Below are positions 1 to 34,055 of a stretch of 34,989 bases of DNA, in pieces. The position numbers were made by a program, and so were the translations under genes. The stretch lies in the IMG/VR virus record IMGVR_UViG_2778261298_000001; one strand, 5' to 3'. The number at the start of each line of letters is the position of its first letter. The stretch's first letter is position 1. Origin of the DNA: a virus. Taxonomy: Duplodnaviria > Heunggongvirae > Uroviricota > Caudoviricetes. The notes under the pieces were generated by a model. The model was not told the DNA's origin and searched no databases. It saw only the letters and a list, made by a program, of their open reading frames with translations.

Positions 1-1053
1 TTACGGGGTAATGCCAACCGCTGTCGCCACTTTGTCGCCACTTGGCAGCGTTGCCAGAGGATTGAAACGGAGCGCCGTTTCCAGATGATCCGGTGCCAGA
101 TGTGCGTAACGCATAGTCATTTTTATATCGTGGTGTCCGAGAATTTTTTGTAAGGCCAGAATGTTTCCACCCGACATCATGAAGTGCGCCGCAAACGTAT
201 GGCGCAGAACGTGTGTGAGTTGACCGCGAGGGAGCACGATAGACGTTTTTTCCATCACGGATAAAAATTGAAAATAGCAGTCTGTGAAGAAATTGAACCC
301 ATCAAGCGCCATGATCTCTTCGTAAAGCTCTTTACTGATAGGGATGCTTCTGTTTTTCTTCCCCTTCGTTCTTACAAAGGTAATTCGGTATTTGGTCACC
401 TGTGAACGAGTAAGATTTACGGCTTCTCGCCAGCGTGCGCCTGTGCTTAAGCATATCTTAACTACCAGTGCCAGAATTGGGTCCTGACGTTTGCAATCAG
501 CCAGTAATTCAACAATCTGCTCATGGGTAAGCCATGCCATCTCTTTTTCTGCGATGGTGAATTTTCGCATGTTCTCCAGTGGGTTCGGATACGACCATTC
601 GCCCAGGCGGGATAGTTCGCTAAAAACACTACTTAGATAGCTTTGCTCCAGGTTAATGGTGACCGGGCTTGCTCCTTTCTTCCATTTCTCGCTGAAGTAG
701 ATCTCACCTGTCAGGCGTTTATCTCGATAGTGGGCAAACATTTTAGAGGTTAGATCAGTTGCAAGGGGATTGCCCAGAGCGTCAACCATCAGCAGCAATT
801 TGTCATAGACATGCTGCCCAGCAGTCAGTGATTTACCATGTAGTTTGAACCATAGCTCAACCACGTCTTTCAGTGTTCGACGATCCACTGATTCACCTAG
901 CCAGGGCTTTGCTTCGGTTTCTTCCATCGTGTGACGCTCAAAAGCCAGTGCTTCGCCTTTGGTGGCGAATTGTTTACGCACACGACGCCCACTACGTCCG
1001 GCGGGGTAACATTCGCAAAGCCATTTTCCTGTGGTGAGTTTTCGTACAGCCAT
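1..1053 (-). CDS. int: Tyrosine integrase (P2/186 Int family)
   Basis: C-terminal ...HVLRHTFAAHFMMSGGNILALQKILGHHDIKMTMRYAHL is the tyrosine recombinase catalytic region. The N-terminus MAVRKLTTGKWLCECYPAGRSGRR resembles P2/186 Int. Start chosen at the internal ATG (1051..1053) preceded by GGAGGG, not the track's 1131. Confidence 0.9.
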   Translation of the reverse strand: MAVRKLTTGKWLCECYPAGRSGRRVRKQFATKGEALAFERHTMEETEAKPWLGESVDRRTLKDVVELWFKLHGKSLTAGQHVYDKLLLMVDALGNPLATDLTSKMFAHYRDKRLTGEIYFSEKWKKGASPVTINLEQSYLSSVFSELSRLGEWSYPNPLENMRKFTIAEKEMAWLTHEQIVELLADCKRQDPILALVVKICLSTGARWREAVNLTRSQVTKYRITFVRTKGKKNRSIPISKELYEEIMALDGFNFFTDCYFQFLSVMEKTSIVLPRGQLTHVLRHTFAAHFMMSGGNILALQKILGHHDIKMTMRYAHLAPDHLETALRFNPLATLPSGDKVATAVGITP

Positions 1054-1241
1054 AAAAAATGCCCTCCAATAGAGAGCATTTTTACTGTATGTATAACCAG
1101 TGTCAATGTATGAAATCCTGCGACCATACATCTCACTGAAGCCATAATGAAGTAGGCTATTCTTTTTGCTATGTGATCATGTAACTTTTGCGGTTAACCT
1201 GTGGCTCATTTTTATTTTAGGCGCAGATATAAAAGCAAAAG

Positions 1242-3721: not shown

Positions 3722-3948
3722 TGGCTGATGCAATGGATCTCGTACAGCAGCGCGTTGAAGAAGAACGCCAACGCCATATCCGTGCTGCCCGTGCCAAAAC
3801 GCCGGGCGTGTCCCGCGTGCTTTGCGTTGAGTGTGAAGCGCCAATTCCGCCAGCACGCCGCCGTGCCATTCCTGGAGTGCAGCTTTGCATTACCTGCCAG
3901 GAAATCGCAGAGCTGAAAGGCAAACATTACAACGGAGGTGCTGTATGA
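3721..3948 (+). CDS. TraR/DksA-family C4 zinc-finger protein
   Basis: CVEC...(17 aa)...CITC four-cysteine motif in a 75-aa protein; start overlaps the upstream stop (TGATG). Confidence 0.7.
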   Translation: MADAMDLVQQRVEEERQRHIRAARAKTPGVSRVLCVECEAPIPPARRRAIPGVQLCITCQEIAELKGKHYNGGAV

Positions 3949-4802
3949 GCACCATCCTGAAATGGGCGGGTAATAAAACCGCCATTATGTCCGAACTGAA
4001 AAAATACCTTCCTGCTGGCCCGCGACTGGTTGAACCTTTCGCGGGTTCTTGTGCTGTGATGATGGCGACGGATTACCCCAGCTATCTGGTTGCGGATATT
4101 AATCCTGATTTAATCAACCTCTATAAAAAGATTGCCGCTGATTGCGAAGCGTTTATATCTCGTGCCAAAGTTTTATTTGGGGAAGCAAACAGTGAGCTGG
4201 CTTATTACAACATAAGACAGGAGTTTAATTACTCAACTGAAATTACTGATTTCATGAAGGCGATATATTTCCTGTATCTCAATCGTCACGGTTACCGTGG
4301 TTTATGTCGCTATAACAAGAGCGGGTATTTCAACATTCCCTACGGTAATTATAAAAATCCGTATTTCCCTGAAAAAGAAATTCGCGCATTTGCAGAGAAA
4401 GCCCAGCGGGCAACGTTTATCTGCGCGAGCTTTGATGAAACGCTGGCGATGCTGCAGGTGGGGGATGTGGTGTATTGCGATCCGCCGTATGACGGTACGT
4501 TTTCCGGCTATCACACTGATGGTTTCACTGAAGATGACCAGTATCACCTGGCATCCATTCTTGAACATCGGTCATCAGAAGGACATCCGGTCATTGTTTC
4601 TAACAATGACACATCCCTGATTCGTTCGCTGTATCGCAATTTTACTCACCACTATATCAAGGCAAAACGCAGCATCGGCGTGTCAGCTGGCGAGGGTAAA
4701 TCTGCAACAGAAATCATTGCTGTTTCCGGGCCGAGCTGCTGGTTGGGATTTGATCCTTCGCGTGGCGTGGATAGTTCTGCCGTGTACGGAGTGTGTGTAT
4801 GA
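3945..4802 (+). CDS. dam: Phage-encoded DNA adenine methyltransferase (Dam family)
   Basis: N-terminal LKWAGNK...EPFAGS AdoMet-binding region and catalytic DPPY motif (VYCDPPYDG). GGAGG RBS upstream of the ATG at 3945. Confidence 0.85.
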
Positions 4803-7213
4803 GTCATGACGATATGAACAATTGCAGCGGCTTTAACGAGGCCGCCGCAGCATTTTCATGGAACGGCTCGAAAAAGGCCATTAACCCTTATCTGGACCCG
4901 GCGGAAGTTGCGCCGGAGTCTGCACTTTCAAACCTGATCACTCTGTACGCTGCCGATAATGAGCAGGAACAACTGCGCCGCGAGGCACTGAGTGAGCAGG
5001 TCTGGGAGCGTTATTTCTTTAATGAATCCCGTGATCCTGTCCAGCGCGAAATGGAGCAGGATAAGCTCATTAGCCGGGCAAAGCTGGCGCATGAGCAGCA
5101 GCGTTTTAATCCGGACATGGTCATTCTGGCGGACGTAAACGCCCAGCCTTCCCATATCAGCAAGCCGCTGATGCAACGTATTGAATACTTCAGCAGCCTG
5201 GGCAGGCCAAAGGCTTATTCCCGCTATTTGCGTGAGACGATTAAGCCATGTCTGGAGCGACTGGATTGTGTACGTGACAGTCAGCTATCTGTTTCTTTCC
5301 GTTTTATGGCAAGCCATCAAGGGCTGGAGGGGCTGCTGATCCTGCCTGAAATGAGCCAGGATCAGGTGAAACGCCTGTCCACCCTGGTAGCAGCGCATAT
5401 GAGCATGTGTCTTGAGGACGCTTGTGGTGATTTGTATGCCACCGATGACGTTAAGCCAGAAGAAATCCGCAAGACATGGGAAAAGGTGGCAGCGGAAACC
5501 CTGCGTCTGGATGTTATCCCGCCTGCGTTTGAGAAACTTCGTCGGAAAAGAAACCGCCGCAAACCAGTGCCCTATGAACTCATCCCGGGTTCGCTGGCGC
5601 GTATGTTGTGTGCCGACTGGTGGTATCGGAAATTATGGAAGATGCGTTGCGAATGGCGGGAAGAGCAGTTGCGTGCTGTCTGCCTGGTCAGCAAAAAAGC
5701 ATCCCCCTATGTCAGCTATGAAGCCGTGATGCATAAACGTGAGCAGCGCCGTAAGTCGCTGGAGTTTTTTCGTTCTCATGAACTGGTGAACGAAGACGGC
5801 GACACGCTGGATATGGAAGATGTGGTAAACGCCAGCAGCAGCAACCCGGCGCATCGCCGCAATGAGATGATGGCCTGTGTTAAAGGTCTGGAGCTTATCG
5901 CGGAAATGCGCAGTGACTGTGCCGTTTTCTACACTATCACCTGTCCGTCGCGTTTCCATTCCACGCTCAATAACGGCAGACCAAACCCGACCTGGACAAA
6001 CGCGACGGTAAGACAAAGTAGCGATTATCTGGTCGGCATGTTTGCTGCATTTCGTAAGGCTATGCATAAAGCCGAGTTGCGCTGGTATGGCGTGCGGGTA
6101 GCTGAGCCGCATCATGACGGTACTGTGCACTGGCATCTCATGTGTTTCATGCGTAAAAAAGACCGCCGCGCCATCACTGCATTACTGCGTAAGTTTGCCA
6201 TCCGTGAAGACCGCGAGGAGCTGGGCAATAACACGGGACCACGCTTTAAGTCTGAGCTGATAAACCCGCGCAAAGGTACGCCAACAAGCTATATCGCGAA
6301 ATACATCAGTAAGAACATTGACGGGCGTGGTCTGGCTGGGGAGATCAGCAAGGAAACGGGTAAATCCCTGCGTGATAACGCTGAATACGTTAATGCCTGG
6401 GCGTCTCTGCATCGTGTTCAGCAATTCCGCTTCTTTGGCATTCCGGGGCGTCAGGCTTACCGTGAACTGCGATTGCTGGCTGGTCAGGCGGCAAGGCAAC
6501 AGGGTGACAAAAAAGCAGGTGCGCCGGTACTGGATAACCCGCGCCTTGATGCCATTCTGGCTGCTGCTGATGCTGGTTGTTTTGCCACCTATATCATGAA
6601 GCAGGGCGGCGTACTGGTTCCCCGTAAATATCACCTCATCAGAACCGCTTATGAAATCAACGAAGAGCCAACCGCCTATGGCGATCACGGTATTCGTATT
6701 TATGGCATCTGGTCACCCATTGCAGAGGGCAAGATCTGCACTCATGCGGTGAAGTGGAAAATGGTTCGTAAGGCCGTTGACGTTCAGGAGGCGGCAGCCG
6801 ACCAGGGCGCTTGCGCCCCTTGGACTCGTGGCAATAACTGTCCCCTTGCTGAAAATTTGAACCAACAGGAGAAAGATAAATCAGCTGATGGGGACACCAG
6901 AACGGATATTACCCGCATGGATGACAAGGAGTTGCACGATTATCTGCACAGTATGAGCAAAAAAGAGCGCCGGGAACTGGCAGCAAGGTTACGCCTGGTT
7001 AAGCCGAAACGGCGTAAGGACTACAAACAGCGAATTACAGATCATCAACGACAGCAGCTCGTCTATGAACTGAAGTCCAGAGGATTTGATGGCAGCGAGA
7101 AAGAGGTCGATTTACTCCTTCGCGGTGGCAGTATTCCGTCAGGAGCAGGCCTGCGTATCTTCTATCGGAACCAGCGTTTGCAGGAAGATGATAAGTGGCG
7201 AAACCTGTATTAA
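4799..7213 (+). CDS. A: Replication initiation endonuclease (P2 gpA / 186 A family, rolling-circle)
   Basis: About 800 aa with the HxH-type motif [14 protein letters not shown] at 4799 overlaps the dam stop. Confidence 0.85.
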
Positions 7214-7365: not shown

Positions 7366-7554
7366 ATGCAGGACTATTTTTTGGAGTCTTTGAAGCTCCA
7401 GCGCATTGATTTTTTTCTTAAGCTTGTAGCGGCTAGTGAGTGTAGTGATGAAGAGAAGGGGCTGGCTCTGCAGTGGGTTTCTGAACTGACAGATGAACTC
7501 ATGGCAAAAATCAGAACCCACGAATACAACCGCTCAATGGATGTCATCAGCTGA
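7366..7554 (+). CDS. SOS-controlled small protein, candidate Tum-like antirepressor module
   Basis: 62-aa ORF with an AGGAGG RBS directly downstream of the LexA box. Functional call is by position and analogy with the 186 SOS operon. Confidence 0.45.
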   Translation: MQDYFLESLKLQRIDFFLKLVAASECSDEEKGLALQWVSELTDELMAKIRTHEYNRSMDVIS

Positions 7555-7564
7555 GGTGACTTTT

Positions 7565-7798
7565 ATGCGCATTGAAATAATGATCGATAAAGAGCAGAAG
7601 ATTAGCCAGTCTACACTGGACGCCCTTGAATCCGAGCTTTACCGCAATCTGCGCCCCCTGTATCCCAAAACGGTAATTCGTATCCGCAAAGGTAGCTCTA
7701 ACGGTGTGGAACTGACCGGACTGCAACTGGACGAAGAAAGAAAACAAGTGATGAAAATTATGCAGAAGGTGTGGGAAGACGACAGCTGGCTGCATTAA
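7565..7798 (+). CDS. DinI-family protein
   Basis: MRIEIMIDKEQKISQSTLDALESELYRNL...KVWEDDSWLH has DinI-like length and N-/C-terminal features. Own GAGG RBS; different frame from the upstream ORF. Confidence 0.7.
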   Translation: MRIEIMIDKEQKISQSTLDALESELYRNLRPLYPKTVIRIRKGSSNGVELTGLQLDEERKQVMKIMQKVWEDDSWLH

Positions 7799-7933
7799 GA
7801 AACGTTGCTGGCGTCTGAACTTGTTTCTGGCGTCAGCAAGGTTGAACAACGAGCCCTTGCGAGGCGTTAGCTCTGTAGTGCATGTCTATGCCGCATGAGA
7901 TCGCATGATCGTTTGAGGATCGTTTTTGCTAAG

Positions 7934-7958
7934 GCCCGCCAGAACTGGCGGGCTTTTG
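7934..7958 (+). terminator. Intrinsic terminator after the SOS operon
   Basis: GCCCGCCAG-aa-CTGGCGGGC hairpin followed by TTTTG. Confidence 0.6.
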
Positions 7959-8002
7959 CGTAGATAATGCACCTGCATGAAAACCACTACATAAAGCGGG
8001 CA

Positions 8003-8021
8003 GGCGTGGCGGGGATACGAG
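8003..8021. other. Candidate cos (cohesive end) site
   Basis: GGCGTGGCGGGGATACGAG; the first 13 nt match the 19-nt cohesive end I recall for P2/186 (GGCG[A/T]GGCGGGGAAAGCA.). Recalled, not verified. Confidence 0.4.
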
Positions 8022-8111
8022 CGCGCGTTGCAAACCATGTCGATGCTGTTATCATTTGCAGCAAGTTTTCAAAGTGCTAAAGCATTCTTTAATTCCAAGG
8101 TAGGTATAGAT

Positions 8112-10052
8112 ATGATAGCCGGGTTGTTTATCCGTAACGTCAAAACATATCAAGGCATAAATTATATTCCTTTGACAGATGCTCCAAATTTTAGCGGTTT
8201 TTTAGGAAATAATGGGATAGGGAAAAGCTCAATACTTGAGGCATTGGATGTAATATTTAATGCTAAAGAGTGGAATTATAATACAGCTGTCAAAAAGAGC
8301 GGCATAGAAAAAACCAGCCCACATATTGTACCGGTTTTTATATTGGAGGAGGATTTTTTTGATTCTGAGACACTCCCTTTTGCAAAAACGCTAGATGCTT
8401 TAGCTAGGGAGGTTAGCTTAGAGGACGCTACAAACTCACAAACAAAAACTATTCTTGAAAATTTTATAAGTCATCGTGATAGACTTTTTGCACGAAATGA
8501 TATGCAAGGGCAGTTAATTATTCCTATTGGACGCCTTCATAATAATAATATGTCATTATCTGTTTTAGCAGGTAGAAGTCTATCTACTATAATGGAAAAA
8601 GATATATTTGGTGCCGGATTCAAGTTAAGTGAAGGTATAGAGTTAGCTAAACATTTTCAAGTTTTATTTGATTATATCACTGGTAAGTTAGAATATTTAT
8701 ATATACCAAAAGAGATTGATACTGAGGTTTTTACTAAGCTTGAGAGTATTGGAACTCAAGTATTGATGGGTGAATCGCTGCATGAAATTCTTGATAGAAT
8801 AGTTGGTGAGTCAAAAATTGGAGAAATCAACAGAGAACTAAGCGGATTTCTTGAAGATATCTCAACGAAGCTAGTTAACTATACGTATAGAACGCCTTCG
8901 GATAGGCAAAAAAGAATTCAAAAAAAAGAAGTCTATAACTTAATTATACAAGCGTTTTTTAACGTCAGAAAATTACATAAAACCCACAATGGCGAGCATT
9001 TTTTAGAAATTAGTAATTTGAGTTCGGGGGAAAAGCAGAAGGCTATTATTGATGTTGCGCATGCATTGCTGACAAAGCATAGAAGTAATAGTGATAATTT
9101 AATCATAGCCATAGATGAACCTGAGTCTTCATTGCACATGTCTGCTTGTTTTGAACAATTTCAAGCGTTATCAGAACTAAGTTTAGGATGTAGGCAACTA
9201 TTGTTTTCCTCTCATTGGTATGGTTTTCTCCCCACCTTGGAAAAGGGAACTGTTACAATAATAACTAAAAAAAATAATGAGCATCTTTTTGATCTGATCA
9301 ATTTAGCATCTTACCGGGAAGAAATAAAACAACTTGTTCGAGATAGTAGGGGAAAGTTACCATTTGATATTAGAATTAAAAGTATGAATGATTTTACTCA
9401 GTCATTATTATCTAGTGCAACAGGTGAGAAACCATATAATTGGTTGATTTGTGAGGGTTCATCGGAAAGAATTTATCTTTCAGCATATTTTAAGGATTTG
9501 ATAAAGAATCATAATCTTCGTATTGTACCTGTTGGGGGGGCGTCGGAAATTAAAAAAATATATAACTATCTCTCTGCCTGCTATAAGGATGTCGAAGGGG
9601 AGATTACCGGAAATATATATTTGTTAGCTGATACTGATAGCCAGTTGGTCAGATATGACGTCGGAACATATCAAAGATTACATTGTAAAAGATTTGTTTA
9701 TGATTCGTCTAAAAACAGGGCAATCTTAGTTAAGATAGACTCAAATCCGGTATCGCCTGCAACTGAGATAGAGGATGTTTTGAACGCAAAAATCTATTAC
9801 CAGACCTTATTGTCATTTGCTGGTGATTACGATTATTTAAGTTTCATTAATAATATTGATGCTCCAAGTGATAATCTGGAATCTTACTCAGCTCTTGATC
9901 TCAGAGTTAGTGAAAAAAATGCCATAAATAGATTTTTTGATGATGGAAATAATAAGTTTTTATTCGCAAAAAGATATGTTGAATTAATGACGGAAGAAAA
10001 TAGTGTTCCAGAGTGGATTAGTAAGATTAGAGAGGTAATGACTTCAGCTTAG
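8112..10052 (+). CDS. ABC-type ATPase fused to a TOPRIM-like nuclease domain (OLD/Gabija/PARIS-like); candidate anti-phage defence cargo
   Basis: Walker A GNNGIGKSS (about 8205..8231), ABC signature LSSGEKQ (about 9013..9039), Walker B/D-loop LIIAIDEPESSLH (9099..9125) and H-loop-like LLFSSHW. Then a TOPRIM-like LICEGSSE (about 9441..9467), PVGGASE and LLADTDS (about 9621..9641). Start set at the ATG at 8112 (MIAGLFIRNVK, typical ABC N-terminal strand). Markedly AT-rich compared with flanking phage genes. Confidence 0.75.
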   Translation: MIAGLFIRNVKTYQGINYIPLTDAPNFSGFLGNNGIGKSSILEALDVIFNAKEWNYNTAVKKSGIEKTSPHIVPVFILEEDFFDSETLPFAKTLDALAREVSLEDATNSQTKTILENFISHRDRLFARNDMQGQLIIPIGRLHNNNMSLSVLAGRSLSTIMEKDIFGAGFKLSEGIELAKHFQVLFDYITGKLEYLYIPKEIDTEVFTKLESIGTQVLMGESLHEILDRIVGESKIGEINRELSGFLEDISTKLVNYTYRTPSDRQKRIQKKEVYNLIIQAFFNVRKLHKTHNGEHFLEISNLSSGEKQKAIIDVAHALLTKHRSNSDNLIIAIDEPESSLHMSACFEQFQALSELSLGCRQLLFSSHWYGFLPTLEKGTVTIITKKNNEHLFDLINLASYREEIKQLVRDSRGKLPFDIRIKSMNDFTQSLLSSATGEKPYNWLICEGSSERIYLSAYFKDLIKNHNLRIVPVGGASEIKKIYNYLSACYKDVEGEITGNIYLLADTDSQLVRYDVGTYQRLHCKRFVYDSSKNRAILVKIDSNPVSPATEIEDVLNAKIYYQTLLSFAGDYDYLSFINNIDAPSDNLESYSALDLRVSEKNAINRFFDDGNNKFLFAKRYVELMTEENSVPEWISKIREVMTSA

Positions 10053-10061
10053 TCATTACCT
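10033..10061 (+). terminator. Hairpin overlapping the stop codon of the cargo gene
   Basis: AGGTAATGAC-ttcagctta-GTCATTACCT inverted repeat followed by an AT-rich tract. Confidence 0.45.
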
Positions 10062-10077
10062 GATTATATTTATTCAG

Positions 10078-11109
10078 TTACATGAGGTCATAAAATTCGA
10101 ATTTTATGACCTCATTATCTATCCAATTGTTAATTTCAATTATTTTCTTTTGTAGAGGAAGAAGTTCATTACGAACAAACACTTTACTCGCCTTCTCCAC
10201 ATCCCCAAACCCCCCGACATTATTAGGCATAATCCCCATCATCTGAGGCGGTACGCGGTGCGCCGCCATCATGTCATCACGGCTGACGTTCTTGATGTTC
10301 AGAAATTCATCCTTCGCTGCGACTTCTGACAATGGGATAATCTGAAGTCCGTCTTTTTTACCATTAGGCGAGTACATAAACAGATTGCGGAAGTTACCCG
10401 GACCTTTGGCGCTTTTCATAGCGTTACGGAGATTGTTCACATCTTCCTGGTTCTGCGCGGCATCGGTCATGTACATGATGAAGCCTGCATGGCTGCCATT
10501 GATGTAATACTTACGGCGGAACAGCGTGGCGGACTCGTTGAGCAGAGCGGATGGAATAGCAGAAAGATAGCCTGGCAGGCCGTAGATCTCCTGATTAATA
10601 TCCGGTTCCATCAGATGAAAGATGCTGCCTTTCGTGAACTGATACGGCTGGGTTGTCATACCGTATTGCACAAACCAGTAGGTATCTAGGTCTAACCCGC
10701 GTCGGGTGTATTTTGCCAGAGCAGGCTCAAGGGCTATAACTTCACCGAAGCGGTTCGTGCGTTTCTCCAGGTAGGCGTTACCAAATACCAGATAGTCCTG
10801 CACAAAACGTGAAAAAGCCTGCTGGCTGAGCAGCGGGTGAGGGATGTAGGTACTGGTCAGAATGTTGCATTTCACCGCAATTGGTGAGCTGTGATGCACG
10901 GCGGCGCGGAAGGTTCGTGCCAGTCCGTCAAAGCTGACGGGCGGCTCATACCAGCGATCCATCTGTACGCATTCCACATAGTCCAGCAGTTCACGGCGGT
11001 CCAGAACAGGAACGGGATCGCCAAAGCTGAATGCTTCGGCTGAAGTCTGGCTTTTATGCTTGAGCTGATTCGTCGCCGCAGCGCGGTTTTTCTTACTCTT
11101 TCCCATCAA
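10078..11109 (-). CDS. Q: Portal protein (P2 gpQ family)
   Basis: 343 aa; position and orientation as P2 Q, adjacent and co-oriented with the terminase large subunit. Confidence 0.85.
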   Translation of the reverse strand: MMGKSKKNRAAATNQLKHKSQTSAEAFSFGDPVPVLDRRELLDYVECVQMDRWYEPPVSFDGLARTFRAAVHHSSPIAVKCNILTSTYIPHPLLSQQAFSRFVQDYLVFGNAYLEKRTNRFGEVIALEPALAKYTRRGLDLDTYWFVQYGMTTQPYQFTKGSIFHLMEPDINQEIYGLPGYLSAIPSALLNESATLFRRKYYINGSHAGFIMYMTDAAQNQEDVNNLRNAMKSAKGPGNFRNLFMYSPNGKKDGLQIIPLSEVAAKDEFLNIKNVSRDDMMAAHRVPPQMMGIMPNNVGGFGDVEKASKVFVRNELLPLQKKIIEINNWIDNEVIKFEFYDLM

Positions 11110-12872
11110 AAAATCTCCACAATATTGCTGGTATTGGCGGATTCGCCCTGCAGCGGCTCGTTAAACAGTGCGTGCATCGTTGCCCAGGCCAGATCGGCGT
11201 GGCTGGCTTCTTCGCTGCGGCTGGCTTCATAGGTCGGGCGGTTGCCGCTGGCGGTGGTGGCGCGACGGATTGCCATGAATGACTGCGCAATGTCGGTGTG
11301 CCCGGCGTCAAACTCCAGACGGCGGTGGCTGATAATGTCGTAGGCCTTGAGTACCAGGGCGTTTTTAACATTGGGGTTATAGACAAACTCCCGGACAGCA
11401 GGAAAGAACGCTTTCACGTTCTCATAAACCCCGTGACCAACGCCGGTTGAGTCGATACCGATATAGGTCACGTTGTACTGTTCGGTCAGTTTTTTGATGG
11501 CGTCAGCCTGGGCACGGAAGTCCATCCCGCGCCACTGGTGACGTTCAAGAATGCGAAACTTACCGCCTGGCACGGCTGGCGGTGCCACCACCACGCATCC
11601 GGCGCTGTCGCCGTTCTGCGTACCTTTTGCCGGGTCATAACCGATCCACACTTCGCGCCAGCCAAACGGGCGCAGGGCCAGAGCATGAAAGTCGGTCCAG
11701 ACTTCCCAACTGTCCACCATGCACGCCTGCAGCTCGCTGAGCGGGAACACGGACGCGAGATCGTCCACGAACTCACACATCAGCAGGTTCTGGTATTCGT
11801 CCGGGCTGTATTCCATGCGCAACTGGTCCAGGTCGAACAGGTTACAGCCGCCGCGCACCGCATCTTCCACGGTGACTATCTGGCGGTATTGCCCGTCTGC
11901 ACACAGCAGGCCGGGAGCCAGATTGCTGTGGGACAGGTCGATGTCCACCTTATCGGCTTTGTTGCGCCCACGGTTGAACAGCGCACCGGACCAGAACGGA
12001 TAAGCACTGTGGGTCAGGCTGGATGGCGTGGAAAAATAGGTCTGTCGCCATTTCTTGTGAATAGCCATACCGGAAGCCACTTTGCGCAGCTCCTGGAATT
12101 TCGGTATCCAGAAATATTCATCCAGATACAGGTTGCCGTGATAACTCTGGGCAGTGCGGGCATTGGTGCCGAGGAAATACAGTGTGGCCCCGTTGGGAAG
12201 CACCATCGGATCGCCTTTCAGCTCCACCTCCACTTCTTTGGCAAAGTCGATGATGTACTGTTTGAAGACGTGGGCCTGTGCCTTACTGGCAGAAAGGAAA
12301 ATCTGGTTACGTCCGGTAAGCAGGGCGTCAATCAGGGCTTCACGGGCAAAATAGAAGGTCGCGCCGATCTGGCGTGACTTCAGCAGGTTGCGGATGCGGT
12401 TGGTTTTTCCGGCTTCCCACCAGTGGCGCTGGTAGTTGAACATGGAGGAATGGAAAATTTCTTCCAGCTTCTCAATCTGTTCATCGGTGAAAACATTCTT
12501 TTCAGGCTGACGGCGTGGGCCTTTGTTGCGGTTGGCGACGTTAGGGTTTAAGTCGGCTTCGTTGCCGCCATTGTTAAACTTGCCGATCCGCGCGTGGCGC
12601 TCAGACTGGCGCGCCAGCAGGTCAATCTCTTTGAAATCTTTCCCTTCTTTGTGCTCCTTCATGATGAGCTGGCAGTAGCGTGCGGCGGTGGTGAGCTGCA
12701 TCTGATCCAGCGGCCCATAGTCACCCCACTTGTCGCGTTTTTTCCAGCTGTGAACGGTTGCAACTTTCTCGCCCAGCATTTCAGCAATGCGGGCTACGCG
12801 GTATCCCTGAAAGTACAGCAGCATGGCCTGCCGACGGGGATCGAGATCTGCGGGTGTCAGTGTGGTGTTCAT
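11106..12872 (-). CDS. P: Terminase large (ATPase) subunit (P2 gpP family)
   Basis: 588 aa; P2 gpP-like size and position, divergent from the O-N-M-L operon. Confidence 0.85.
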   Translation of the reverse strand: MNTTLTPADLDPRRQAMLLYFQGYRVARIAEMLGEKVATVHSWKKRDKWGDYGPLDQMQLTTAARYCQLIMKEHKEGKDFKEIDLLARQSERHARIGKFNNGGNEADLNPNVANRNKGPRRQPEKNVFTDEQIEKLEEIFHSSMFNYQRHWWEAGKTNRIRNLLKSRQIGATFYFAREALIDALLTGRNQIFLSASKAQAHVFKQYIIDFAKEVEVELKGDPMVLPNGATLYFLGTNARTAQSYHGNLYLDEYFWIPKFQELRKVASGMAIHKKWRQTYFSTPSSLTHSAYPFWSGALFNRGRNKADKVDIDLSHSNLAPGLLCADGQYRQIVTVEDAVRGGCNLFDLDQLRMEYSPDEYQNLLMCEFVDDLASVFPLSELQACMVDSWEVWTDFHALALRPFGWREVWIGYDPAKGTQNGDSAGCVVVAPPAVPGGKFRILERHQWRGMDFRAQADAIKKLTEQYNVTYIGIDSTGVGHGVYENVKAFFPAVREFVYNPNVKNALVLKAYDIISHRRLEFDAGHTDIAQSFMAIRRATTASGNRPTYEASRSEEASHADLAWATMHALFNEPLQGESANTSNIVEIF

Positions 12873-13014: not shown

Positions 13015-13848
13015 ATGACAGTGAAAGCAAAGCGTTTTCGCATCGGGGTGGAAGGTGCCACCACCGACGGACGCGAAATCCAGCGTGAATGGCTGGAACA
13101 GATGGCAGCCAGCTATAACCCGGCGGTGTATACCGCGCTGATTAACCTTGAGCACATCAAGTCTTATCTGCCGGACAGCACCTTTAACCGCTACGGCAAG
13201 GTGACGGCGCTGTTTGCTGAAGAAATCACGGAAGGTCCGCTGGCAGGCAAGATGGCGCTGTATGCCGACGTTGAGCCAACGGAGTCCCTGGTGGAGCTGG
13301 TGAAAAAAGGCCAGAAATTATTCACCTCTATGGAAGTCAGCCCGAAGTTCGCTGATACGGGCAAAGCCTACCTGGTCGGCCTGGCTGCCACTGATGACCC
13401 TGCCAGTCTGGGCACTGAAATGCTGACATTCAGCGCCAGTGCAGCCCATAACCCACTGGCAAACCGCAAGCAGAATCCTGCCAATCTCTTTACCGCTGCA
13501 GAGGAAACGGTGATCGAACTGGAAGAAATCCAGGATGACAAACCGTCCCTGTTTGCCCGTGTCACGGCGCTGTTTACCAAAAAAGATCAGTCCGATGACG
13601 CCCGGTTCTCTGATGTGCATAAGGCCGTGGAGCTGGTCGCCACTGAGCAGCAAAACCTGAGCGCACGCACCGAAAAATCCCTGTCTGAGCAGGAAGAACG
13701 CCTGTCTGAGCTGGAGACTGCCCTGCAGGCACAGCAGACCGCCTTTAACGAACTGGTGGACAAGCTGAGTCAAGAAGACAGCCGCCAGGACTACCGCCAG
13801 CGTGCAACAGGCGGTAACACCCCCGCTGACACTCTGACCAATTGCTGA
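13015..13848 (+). CDS. O: Capsid scaffolding protein (P2 gpO family)
   Basis: 277 aa; first gene of the rightward head operon. Confidence 0.85.
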   Translation: MTVKAKRFRIGVEGATTDGREIQREWLEQMAASYNPAVYTALINLEHIKSYLPDSTFNRYGKVTALFAEEITEGPLAGKMALYADVEPTESLVELVKKGQKLFTSMEVSPKFADTGKAYLVGLAATDDPASLGTEMLTFSASAAHNPLANRKQNPANLFTAAEETVIELEEIQDDKPSLFARVTALFTKKDQSDDARFSDVHKAVELVATEQQNLSARTEKSLSEQEERLSELETALQAQQTAFNELVDKLSQEDSRQDYRQRATGGNTPADTLTNC

Positions 13849-13864
13849 TGGAGCACAAAATCCG

Positions 13865-14923
13865 ATGAAGAAGAATACCCGCTTTGCTTTTAACGCTTAC
13901 CTGCAGCAGCTGGCGCGTCTGAACGGTGTGGCAGTTGAAGAACTGTCCAGCAAATTCACTGTGGAGCCGTCTGTGCAGCAGACGCTGGAAGACCAGATCC
14001 AGCAGTCCGCCGCTTTCCTGACGCTGATTAACGTCACGCCAGTGACTGAGCAGTCCGGTCAGCTGCTGGGGCTGGGTGTTGGCAGCACCATTGCCGGAAC
14101 CACTGACACCACCGCGAAAGAGCGTGAACCTGTCGATCCGACGCTGATGGTCGATGTGGAATATAAATGCGAGCAGACCAACTTTGACACGGTGCTGACC
14201 TACGCGAAGCTGGACCTGTGGGCGAAGTTTCAGGATTTCCAGGTGCGTATCCGTGACGCCATCGTGAAACGTCAGGCACTGGACCGCATCATGATCGGCT
14301 TTAACGGCGTGAAGCGTGCGAAAACCTCCAACCGTAGCGAAAACCCGCTGCTGCAGGATGTAAATAAAGGCTGGCTGCAGAAAATCCGTGAGGATGCACC
14401 GGATCACGTCATGGGCAGCACCACCACGGGCGGTGAAACCACACCGGGCGCAGTGAAAGTCGGCAAAGGTGGCGAATATGCCAACCTGGACGCCGTGGTG
14501 ATGGATGCCGTCAATGAGCTTATCGACGTGGTTTACCAGGACGATGACGATCTGGTGGTGATTTGCGGTCGTGAACTGTTGTCTGACAAGTATTTCCCGC
14601 TGGTCAACAAAGAGCAGGAGAACAGTGAAAAACTGGCTGCAGATATGATCATCAGCCAGAAACGCATGGGTGGCCTGCAGGCCGTGCGTGCGCCGTTCTT
14701 CCCGCCGAATGCGCTGCTAATCACCCGTCTGGATAACCTGTCCATCTACTGGCAGGAAGACACCCGCCGCCGTTCAGTTATCGACAACCCGAAACGTGAC
14801 CGGATTGAAAATTTTGAATCCGTTAACGAAGCCTATGTGGTTGAGGACTACCGCTGCGCCGCACTGGTGGAAAACATCCAGATTGGCGACTTCAGCGCCG
14901 CCGCAGCAGAAACCGGAGCGTAA
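13865..14923 (+). CDS. N: Major capsid protein (P2 gpN family)
   Basis: 352 aa; follows the scaffold gene. Confidence 0.85.
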   Translation: MKKNTRFAFNAYLQQLARLNGVAVEELSSKFTVEPSVQQTLEDQIQQSAAFLTLINVTPVTEQSGQLLGLGVGSTIAGTTDTTAKEREPVDPTLMVDVEYKCEQTNFDTVLTYAKLDLWAKFQDFQVRIRDAIVKRQALDRIMIGFNGVKRAKTSNRSENPLLQDVNKGWLQKIREDAPDHVMGSTTTGGETTPGAVKVGKGGEYANLDAVVMDAVNELIDVVYQDDDDLVVICGRELLSDKYFPLVNKEQENSEKLAADMIISQKRMGGLQAVRAPFFPPNALLITRLDNLSIYWQEDTRRRSVIDNPKRDRIENFESVNEAYVVEDYRCAALVENIQIGDFSAAAAETGA

Positions 14924-14926
14924 TCC

Positions 14927-15577
14927 ATGAGCCTGAGTCCCGCACGGCAGCATCGCCTGCGCGTTCAGGCTGAACAGGCCGCCCGTGAGGGCGGCAGTGT
15001 TCGCCACGCGTCGGGCTATGACCTGATGCTGCTGCAACTGGCGGAAGACCGCCGCCGTCTCAAGGGCGTTCAGTCCACGGTGAAAAAAGCAGAAATAAAG
15101 GTGGAGCTGCTGCCGAAGTACGCCGCCTGGGCAGAGGGCGTCCTGGCTGCCGGAGGCACTCAACAGGATGACGTGCTGATGTACGTGATGCTGTGGCGCA
15201 TTGATGCCGGAGATTATGCCGGGGCGCTGGAGATCGGGCGTCATGCCCTGCGTCATGGCTGGGTGATGCCGCTGGGTAACCGCAACGTGCAGACCGTGCT
15301 GGCAGAGGAAATGGCAGATGCGGCGCAGAGCGCAATGCTTGCCGCCACCGGCTTTGATGCCGATCTGTTGCTGCAGACGCTGGAGCTGACAGACGGTCTG
15401 GATATGCCGGACCAGTCACGGGCGCGTCTGCATAAAGCGATTGGCGCTGTCCTGAGTGAAAGCAACCCGGCTTCCGCCCTTAATCATCTCAACCATGCGT
15501 TACAGCTCGATCCCCGCTGTGGCGTGAAAAAAGACAAACAGCAGCTGGAGCGCAGACTGCGCAATGACAGCCGCTGA
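14927..15577 (+). CDS. M: Terminase small (endonuclease) subunit (P2 gpM family)
   Basis: 216 aa; follows N as in P2. Confidence 0.8.
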   Translation: MSLSPARQHRLRVQAEQAAREGGSVRHASGYDLMLLQLAEDRRRLKGVQSTVKKAEIKVELLPKYAAWAEGVLAAGGTQQDDVLMYVMLWRIDAGDYAGALEIGRHALRHGWVMPLGNRNVQTVLAEEMADAAQSAMLAATGFDADLLLQTLELTDGLDMPDQSRARLHKAIGAVLSESNPASALNHLNHALQLDPRCGVKKDKQQLERRLRNDSR

Positions 15578-31825: not shown

Positions 31826-31915
31826 TTCTTCGCAATGGAGAACTTTTAAGTTTGCAAAATGGAATAATAAGGTATCATTATTGTGAATTTAGCAAAAATG
31901 GGGAGAACTCGAAAA

Positions 31916-32134
31916 ATGATGATTTGCCCACTGTGTGGAAGTGCCGCCCATACTCGCAGCAGTTTTCAGGTATCTTCATTGACCAAAGAGCGTTACAACC
32001 AGTGCCAGAATATTAACTGCAGCCATACTTTTGTTACCCATGAAACTTTTGTTCGTTCGATTGCAACGCCAAAAGAGTCAAATCCGGTTCAGCCGCATCC
32101 AATGAAATCAGGACAGGTGGCGCTCTCTCTTTGA
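31916..32134 (+). CDS. ogr: Late gene transcriptional activator, Ogr/Delta/B zinc-finger family
   Basis: MMICPLCGSAAHTRSS...KERYNQCQNINCSHTF matches the C-x2-C...C-x4-C Ogr motif. Start at the ATG at 31916 with a GGGGAG RBS. Confidence 0.85.
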   Translation: MMICPLCGSAAHTRSSFQVSSLTKERYNQCQNINCSHTFVTHETFVRSIATPKESNPVQPHPMKSGQVALSL

Positions 32135-32369: not shown

Positions 32370-34055
32370 TTATCCTAATCCTGGCCATACCATGACGATG
32401 ATTGTCCCTGCCAGCGTCAGCAGGACGTTGGCGATTGCGTAGGTGCCCGCATAGCCCAGCGCAGGGATGTTACTGCGAGCTGTATCACTGATGATCTCCA
32501 TTGCCGGCGCGCAGGTGCGTGCGCCCATCATTGCGCCGAACAACAGTGCGCGGTTCATTCGCAATACATAAGCACCGAACAAGAAACAGATAACCACGGG
32601 CACAAGACTGACAATTAATCCGGCAATCAACATCTGACCGCCAATCGCGCCCAGGCCGTTATTAATACCGCTACCGGCGCTCAGACCAACGCCTGCCATA
32701 AACACCATCAAGCCGAACTCTTTCACCATGCTTAATGCACCTTGCGGAATGTAACCGAAGGTCGGGTGATTAGCACGCATAAAGCCCAGCATAATTCCGG
32801 CGAATAACAACCCGGCAGCGTTCCCCATGCCGAAACTGAATGTGCTGAACTGGAAGGTGATCATCCCGATCATCAGCCCAATAACAAAGAAGGCGCAAAA
32901 TGCCAGCAGGTCAGTGACCTGGCTGTGAATCGAGATAAAGCCGATGCGATCGGCGATGGTTTTTACGCGACGGGCATCACCGCTGACTTGTAAAACGTCA
33001 CCTTTGTTAAGCACGACGTTGTCATCTATCGGCATCTCAATCTGGCTACGAATGACGCGGTTAAGGAAGCAACCGTGATCGGTCAACTTCAGTTGTGCGA
33101 GACGTTTACCTACAGCGTTATGGTTTTTAACGACCACTTCTTCAGTGACGATACGCATGTCGAGAAGGTCACGATCGAAAACTTCTTTACCGTTACGGAA
33201 GCTGGGATCGAGTCGGGCATGGGCGTCGGGATAGCCTACCAACGCTATTTCATCGCCCATTTGTAGCACGGCATCACCGTCTGGATTTGCCAGAATCCCG
33301 TTACGTCGAATACGTTCAATGTAGCAGCCGGTTTGTCGATAAATACCCAGTTCACGCAGATTTTTGCCGTCGGTCCAGGCCACCAGCTCCGGGCCGACGC
33401 GATAGGCGCGGATCACCGGTAAATAAACCTTACGGTTGGCATCAGTGTCCAGGCCACGTTCGCGGGCGATTTGCTGGGCGCTGGTCTGTAAGTCCTGATG
33501 CTGCAATTTCGGCAAGTAACGCGCACCAACAATCAAACTCACCAGACCGATTAAATAGGTTAAGGCATACCCGAGGCTCAGATTATCCAGTGCCAGTGAG
33601 AGCTGCCTGCTTTCCATGCCGGAATGACGCAGTGTATCGCCAGCACCGACCAGAACCGGTGTCGACGTCATAGAGCCTGCTAACATACCGGCCGTCAGGC
33701 CAATATCCCAGCCAAACAGCTTACCTAACCCTAAGGCGATCACCAGCGCACTGCCAACCATCACCAGTGCTAACATTAGGTAATTTTTCCCATCGCGAAA
33801 AAAAATGGAAAAAAAGTTCGGTCCGGCTTCAACCCCAACACAGAAAATAAACAGCATAAAGCCAAGATTAAGCGCATCGGTGTTAATGCTGAAATGTTGT
33901 TGGCCTAATAACAGCGATACGACTAAAACGCCAATGGAATTACCCAGTTGGATCGAACCAAGTCGTAACTTTCCGAGACATAGCCCAAGCGCGAGGACCA
34001 CAAATAATAACAGAATGTAATTCCCATTTAACAATTCGGCGACGTTTATATTCAC
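32370..34055 (-). CDS. ybjL: Putative transport protein YbjL (AAE-family transporter with TrkA-C domains)
   Basis: 561-aa multi-TM protein whose sequence I recognise as E. coli YbjL; the neighbours ybjM and grxA agree. Confidence 0.9.

Follow-up and report, generated by a model that had tools for sequence, protein, structure and literature searches.

A predicted P2-family cos site beside an OLD-family cargo gene in an apparently complete prophage

A short sequence directly upstream of an accessory gene of about 2 kb raised two questions at this locus: whether it is the cos site at which the packaged chromosome would be cut, and whether a cargo gene lying between cos and the portal gene is out of the ordinary. 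We analyzed the locus within a window of 34,989 nt, the whole stretch of DNA available, and all positions given here are those of the window, on the plus strand unless marked otherwise. The genes that frame the locus are the following:

1-1131, minus strand: integrase
4793-7213: replication protein A
7493-7798, plus strand: DinI/Tum-like gene (Pfam DinI), the conserved gene nearest to cos on the side of A
10078-11109, minus strand: portal gene Q (Pfam Phage_portal), the right boundary of the cargo slot
11106-12872, minus strand: large terminase subunit P, homologue of P2 gpP (Pfam Terminase_5, Terminase_6N, and Terminase_6C)
13015-13848: scaffold O
13865-14923: capsid N
14927-15577, plus strand: small terminase subunit M, homologue of P2 gpM (Pfam Phage_term_smal)
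31883-32134: Ogr
32370-34055, minus strand: host permease gene (Asp-Al_Ex/TrkA_C), located after ogr

The order int, A, DinI, cos, cargo, Q, P, O, N, M, ogr is that of P2, two terminase subunits are encoded, and the structural and terminase genes are full length. The permease gene is evidently host DNA, which places the end of the prophage near 32.2-32.3 kb, short of the end of the window. The window thus appears to hold a complete P2-family prophage of the Fels-2/SEN8/Wadgaonvirus type, in which the small terminase subunit would be expected to recognize cos and the large subunit to act there as well.

Direct reading of the sequence gave GGCGTGGCGGGGATACGAG at 8003-8021 on the plus strand. The first bases of the 186 (NC_001317) and PSP3 (NC_005340) records are GGCGTGGCGGGGAAAGCAT, and those of the P2 (NC_001895) and P4 (NC_001609) records are GGCGAGGCGGGGAAAGCAC. 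In the P2, 186, and PSP3 records these bases carry a cohesive-end annotation, with the top strand cut at the 5′ end and the bottom strand at the 3′ end; the P4 record carries no such feature. The window 19-mer is identical to the cohesive ends of the 4 phages at 14-15 of 19 positions, the match to 186 covering positions 1-13, 15, and 18 (15/19). Its first 13 nt, GGCGWGGCGGGGA, have a single perfect occurrence in the whole window. The initial annotation had reported this 13-nt match to the P2/186 end at 8003..8021, and the reference records confirm the sequence that it used. The cos sites of P2, 186, PSP3, and P4 share the architecture and register of the window site and differ from it at positions 14-19, where the window has TACGAG and the P2/186-type ends have AAGCAT or AAGCAC, so that 4 of these 6 bases are unlike both P2 and 186.

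To compare the surroundings of the 19-mer, each reference genome was joined at its ends and compared with the window. The alignment to the P2 and 186 cos regions, which the initial annotation had proposed as a check, is ungapped and runs base for base at the annotated cos junctions. The matching segment is:

7974-8028, plus strand: 55-bp cos core, comprising 29 nt left of the 19-mer, the 19-mer, and the right flank

Identity to the window across this core was 44/55 for PSP3, 43/55 for 186, 42/55 for P4, 41/55 for P2, and 53/55 for Salmonella phage SEN8. When the 186 core was placed along both strands of the whole window, the second-best placement reached 29/55; compared to this runner-up, the 43/55 match is far beyond chance. 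The core is laid out as TGCATGAAAACCACTACATAAAGCGGGCA, the 19-mer, and CGCGCGT in the window, and as TGCATTAAAACCGACCCATAAAGTGGGCA, the 19-mer, and TGCGCGC in 186. The GCGGGCA before position 1 and the CGCGCG at positions 20-25 are kept in register with no gap, and the latter is an exact match to P4. A one-base-gapped alignment of positions 14-26 to 186 was also considered and dropped, since the ungapped register fits both P4 at positions 20-25 and the consensus of 120 loci described below. A 55-bp core conserved in P2-family cos regions was reported by Ziermann and Calendar (1990), according to two papers that cite this work, and we infer that it corresponds exactly to 7974-8028. Together, the homology to the 19-nt end and to the 55-bp core, found once in the window, and the location between A and Q in a genome with gpM- and gpP-type terminase genes indicate that the cos of a P2-family prophage is very probably cut at 8003-8021.

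The extent of the site was assessed from its relatives. At least 120 IMG/VR loci besides the window contain the exact 19-mer, and column-wise conservation was calculated with the flanks in register for 121 distinct flanks (the 120 IMG/VR loci listed and the window). Conservation rises at position -125 (window 7878) and stays high across the left arm and the 19-mer. Further right, positions 20-25 (CGCGCG) are at least 98% conserved among the listed loci, position 26 is C in 83% of them and T in the window, and from position 27 on conservation is at background level. The features delimited in this way are:

7878-8027, plus strand: full cos block of 150 bp (-125 to +25), made of the left arm (-125 to -1), the 19-mer, and CGCGCG
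7932-7960, plus strand: GC-rich hairpin followed by TTTT, within the left arm and kept within the block

The DNA on both sides of the block is diverse. Among the 120 loci listed, the 60-nt right flanks formed 87 unrelated groups; for 117 loci, the 60 nt left of -125 formed 54. In this lineage, the cos unit thus spans 150 bp and is flanked on either side by variable DNA, and a short conserved island of this kind has the look of a cis-acting site under selection. A discrete cis element amid differing flanks was thus found across at least 120 loci.

Within the block, the left arm is likely the terminase-binding part, a prediction made by analogy with other cos phages. GCATG occurs 4 times in this arm (7880, 7893, 7903, and 7975), and motifs of the TGCAT type are also present in the corresponding arm of P2, 186, PSP3, and P4; these GCATG/TGCAT motifs are candidate binding sites for the small terminase subunit. 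The left arm also contains ATGCA at 7967. The hairpin at 7932-7960 lies at a similar offset in 186, PSP3, P4, and SEN8 and is absent from P2, and it likely serves as the terminator of the A-DinI transcript, as a packaging element, or as both. It is kept even in loci with other cargo between the block and the DinI gene.

The same site was found in described phages. By blastn against the phage collection, the region was present in 104 Peduoviridae records from Klebsiella, Escherichia, Salmonella, Yersinia, and other hosts. In the record of Salmonella phage SEN8 (Felsduovirus; KT630647.2), the identical 19-mer, labelled "putative cos site", comes first; the first base of the record is the equivalent of window 8003, and the match runs to its last base, which lies opposite window 8002. 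The SEN8 genome paper gives cos as ggcgtggcggggatacgag, a site assigned in annotation and not via end mapping. As in the window, cos of SEN8 has the DinI gene on one side and Q on the other, and the genes that separate it from Q are variable. The same type of cos is found in Fels-2, RE-2010, Cartapus, and Escherichia phage 500465-1; in Cartapus, 53 bp are identical to window 7975-8027 and bear the annotation of a putative cos with homology to P2 cos. Variants ending in ACGAG have been published for SEN4/5 and for Stenotrophomonas phage Smp131. The cos block was also present in 1,274 of 5,426 complete E. coli genomes, which were compared with window positions 7850-10150. Over these positions, E. 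coli XJW9B263 (NZ_CP067399.1) is 99.5% identical to the window. The candidate cos of the initial annotation is thus borne out by alignment with the P2, 186, and PSP3 junctions and the P4 genome ends, and its 19-mer is the published cos of SEN8.

We consider it likely, at a probability of roughly 90%, that 7878-8027 is a cos packaging site cut at 8002|8003 and 8021|8022, with a right-hand slot that holds a cargo cassette. Two other explanations of the block were weighed. One accepts a genuine cos and supposes that the bottom-strand nick is shifted, giving an overhang of a length other than the 19 nt of P2 and 186. The right third of the 19-mer invites this idea, as TACGAG departs from ends (AAGCAT and AAGCAC) that were sequenced experimentally, and the assignments of this variant, those of SEN8, Cartapus, and Smp131 included, were all made by analogy. 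The literature that we found gives cos of this variant by annotation only, with no experimentally mapped ends; the phage records that end at the site, SEN8 and EtG, were oriented by annotation, the EtG end being of the 186 type; and among the matches listed (at least 120 loci) no IMG/VR contig ends exactly at the 19-mer, the site being always internal. Against a shifted nick, the bases that bracket both cuts, GCGGGCA on the left and the P4-like CGCGCG on the right, are in ungapped register, which makes it improbable.

The other explanation denies packaging at this locus: the block would be what is left of a cos in a defective prophage, or would be conserved mainly for recombination, as a homology anchor, or for termination. 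In its favor are a pseudogene drawn across the block in RefSeq and the terminator-like hairpin inside the block. Against it speak the full-length structural and terminase genes, as do the occurrence of the block in almost a quarter of the complete E. coli genomes and its presence in isolated phages, SEN8 having been sequenced from virion DNA. In addition, this core is all that satellite P4 has in common with its helper phages, which indicates a packaging role. We regard this explanation as highly improbable, more so than a displaced nick.

If the block is a packaging site cut as in P2 and 186, then after excision and replication the terminase (small subunit 14927-15577, large subunit 11106-12872) would bind the 7878-8027 block and introduce staggered nicks, in the top strand at 8002|8003 and in the bottom strand at 8021|8022, both positions being predicted from the sequence register. 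Cutting in this way would give 19-nt 5′ overhangs with the sequence GGCGTGGCGGGGATACGAG. In the virion, the first base of the chromosome would be 8003 and its first gene the cargo, and its right end would consist of the DinI gene and the cos left arm. Since only ~6 bp past the right-hand nick are conserved, anything can sit right of +25, and the lineage would use this position as a cargo slot. In the window, the slot would hold a self-contained cassette consisting of the promoter-like element at 8028-8055, a ribosome-binding site, the gene at 8112-10052, and the hairpin at 10033-10061.

The slot is long by the standard of the reference phages. From the end of the 19-mer to the Q stop codon there are 2,056 bp in the window, compared to equivalent cos-portal gaps of 167 bp in P2 and 176 bp in 186. 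The initial annotation was thus right that a 2-kb cargo sits between cos and the portal gene where P2 has a short spacer; it overrated the arrangement in treating it as unusual, for cargo between cosL and Q is common and published. Among the listed loci (at least 120), the cos-Q gap ranged from 153 to 3,531 bp where Q was found and exceeded 500 bp in ~90% of these, and only 9 loci among the matches listed had a P2-like gap of less than 200 bp. The DinI-cos gap ranged from 206 to 3,211 bp among the listed loci. As both gaps vary, cargo is accepted on either side of cos; the DinI-cos gap of the window, ~206 bp, is the minimum among the listed loci, so the window has no cargo left of cos. The genes found between cos and Q in other phages are diverse, and include a TIR-domain protein in 500465-1, a Hypoth_Ymh protein in vB_EcoM-813R9, a 1.7-kb gene of unknown function in Fels-2, a hypothetical protein and an HNH endonuclease in SEN8, and a DUF4145 protein in Cartapus.

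This position has a history in the literature. Rousset et al. 2022 (PMC9122126) described the gpA-gpQ region directly beside cos as a hotspot of anti-phage systems, a description repeated in a 2026 survey. Askora et al. 2017 noted, citing work of the 1990s, that a hotspot had earlier been proposed between cosL and the Q homologue, and Dodd and Egan 1996 and Nakayama 1999 are credited with this observation in PMC5694545. The variable, often defensive cargo beside cos in the gpA-gpQ hotspot of P2-like phages corresponds to what is seen in the window, with no essential difference. In P2 itself, the phage's own cargo (old and tin) is on the side of cos opposite to that of the window cargo. Both the cos sequence and the cos-cargo-Q arrangement of P2-like phages are therefore already known from published work.

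The start of the cargo gene was examined next to the edge of the cos block, and the assignments that resulted are:

8028-8055, plus strand: promoter-like element (TTGCAA, 16-nt spacer, TG, TATCAT) from a consensus scan
8112-10052, plus strand: cargo gene, encoding a 646-aa OLD-family ATPase-TOPRIM protein (Pfam, PADLOC, and homologues)

The list of open reading frames gives 8028-10052 with a TTG start, and in-frame ATG codons are present at 8037, 8043, and 8112. In a 99.5%-identical E. coli locus, RefSeq starts the gene at the ATG equivalent to 8037, 25 codons upstream of the start of the homologues, and draws a pseudogene ("hypothetical protein, internal stop") over 7895-8080, across cos. When the protein started at 8037 was used as query, 869 database homologues were found at E ≤ 1e-10. 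The best of these measure 640-647 aa and align to 95-96% of the query; a 646-aa database protein is 100% identical over its full length and has its first residue at ATG 8112. We aligned 10 homologues, with Enterobacter, E. coli, Serratia, Pseudomonas, Halopseudomonas, Comamonas, Shewanella, Marinomonas, and Halomonas among the named sources, and all 10 start with MI.G.F.R..KTY at the residue of ATG 8112. The Pfam AAA_15 alignment begins at residue 2 of the protein started at 8112, and GGTAGGT is located 7 nt upstream of this codon. These results support ATG 8112, with its plausible ribosome-binding site, as the true start, in agreement with the initial annotation. TTG 8028, ATG 8037, and ATG 8043 are ruled out by the homologue starts at 8112. 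The initial annotation had accordingly been correct to doubt a start at 8028, although the codon there, which it took for ATG, is TTG. Both the RefSeq pseudogene at 7895-8080 and the 8037 start look like annotation artefacts.

The promoter-like element begins exactly at the conservation break and has 9 of 12 consensus matches and an extended -10 TG; the evidence for a promoter is weak, since the region as a whole is not enriched compared with shuffled sequence. At the other end of the gene, the cargo stop codon (10050-10052) falls within a hairpin with an 11-bp stem (10033-10061), 17 bp ahead of which is the convergent Q stop. This hairpin is probably a two-way terminator in place of the tQ of P2.

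The domain content of the cargo protein is that of the OLD family. At the N-terminus, an ABC-type ATPase with Walker A, signature, and Walker B was found (Pfam AAA_15, 54.5 bits against a cut-off of 32.1; AAA_21 also matched), and the motifs GNNGIGKSS, LSSGEKQ, and DEPESSLH are invariant in 11 homologues. A TOPRIM domain with the conserved Glu and DxD follows at the C-terminus, with a short match to Pfam OLD-like_TOPRIM at residues 444-490 (27.4 bits, cut-off 23.2) and with CEG..E and DTD invariant among homologues. The AriA and Old models of PADLOC both matched the protein. Compared to P2 Old, identity was 24% over 262 residues comprising Walker B and the TOPRIM region (pairwise E = 2e-6). 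P2 Old is likewise an ABC-type ATPase with TOPRIM, encoded by a single gene beside cos and transcribed away from it; it differs in length (586 aa versus 646 aa) and in the side of cos that it occupies. A sequence search of solved structures with the cargo protein gave only marginal matches to an SMC head domain.

This OLD-like cargo is rare. It was found in 10 of the 5,426 complete E. coli genomes, in isolates from cattle, pig, chicken, human, and seawater. In the phage collection, tblastn gave no match at E < 1e-5, and none was found at this threshold among the 120 listed IMG/VR loci that bear the cos. Two other P2-like lineages, one of them with a P2-type cos, carry related OLD-like genes 73-90 nt past the 19-mer: a Salmonella homologue (81% identical) is located 87 nt after the identical 19-mer (contig ABBVUU010000008.1), and an E. 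coli homologue (62% identical) 73 nt after a P2-type cos. The spacers between cos and the gene start in the Salmonella contig and in the window are unrelated except for the ribosome-binding site TCCAAGGTAGGT. The Salmonella spacer contains a long near-perfect inverted repeat, GACGACACTGGCTTTTAAGA...TCTTAAAAGCCAGTGTCGTC (~3925-3985 in the coordinates of locus L136), which the window does not have. A Pseudomonas fluorescens homologue (54% identical) is encoded between hsdS and hsdR in a type I restriction-modification operon (CABVHQ010000023.1; 4001-5923 in the coordinates of locus L138), a context that suggests that the family is also accessory to restriction systems. Together, the prophage-hotspot and restriction-operon contexts suggest a putative defence role, and by analogy with P2 old the cargo is probably an anti-phage nuclease expressed from the prophage.

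How the cargo in the slot is exchanged was also considered. The break in conservation falls at the same base (+25/+26) before all 87 groups of right flanks among the matches listed, six to seven bases past the predicted bottom-strand nick. Because of this constant boundary, one may ask if cargo is swapped via cos cleavage itself instead of by ordinary homologous recombination in the flanking genes. Foreign DNA might then be joined, for instance, to a left cohesive end that terminase cutting or injection had left free, and the +25/+26 boundary would be the edge of the terminase footprint. We regard such an exchange as doubtful, and the idea is only partly new, since Rousset et al. 2022 (PMC9122126) speculate in a similar way that cohesive ends promote cargo exchange.

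Current understanding of P2-family phages is unchanged by these results, and their value is in annotation: base 1 of the virion genome is predicted at 8003, the cargo start is moved from the RefSeq position 8037 to 8112, and the RefSeq pseudogene at 7895-8080 is recognized as really being the cos site. The comparison of the listed loci (at least 120) defines the cos unit of this lineage as 150 bp, of which only ~6 bp would be needed right of the cut, and this definition could help to design packaging-competent cosmids or engineered P2-like vectors. For the prophage itself, the analysis places a defence-type cargo in the well-known hotspot adjacent to cos.
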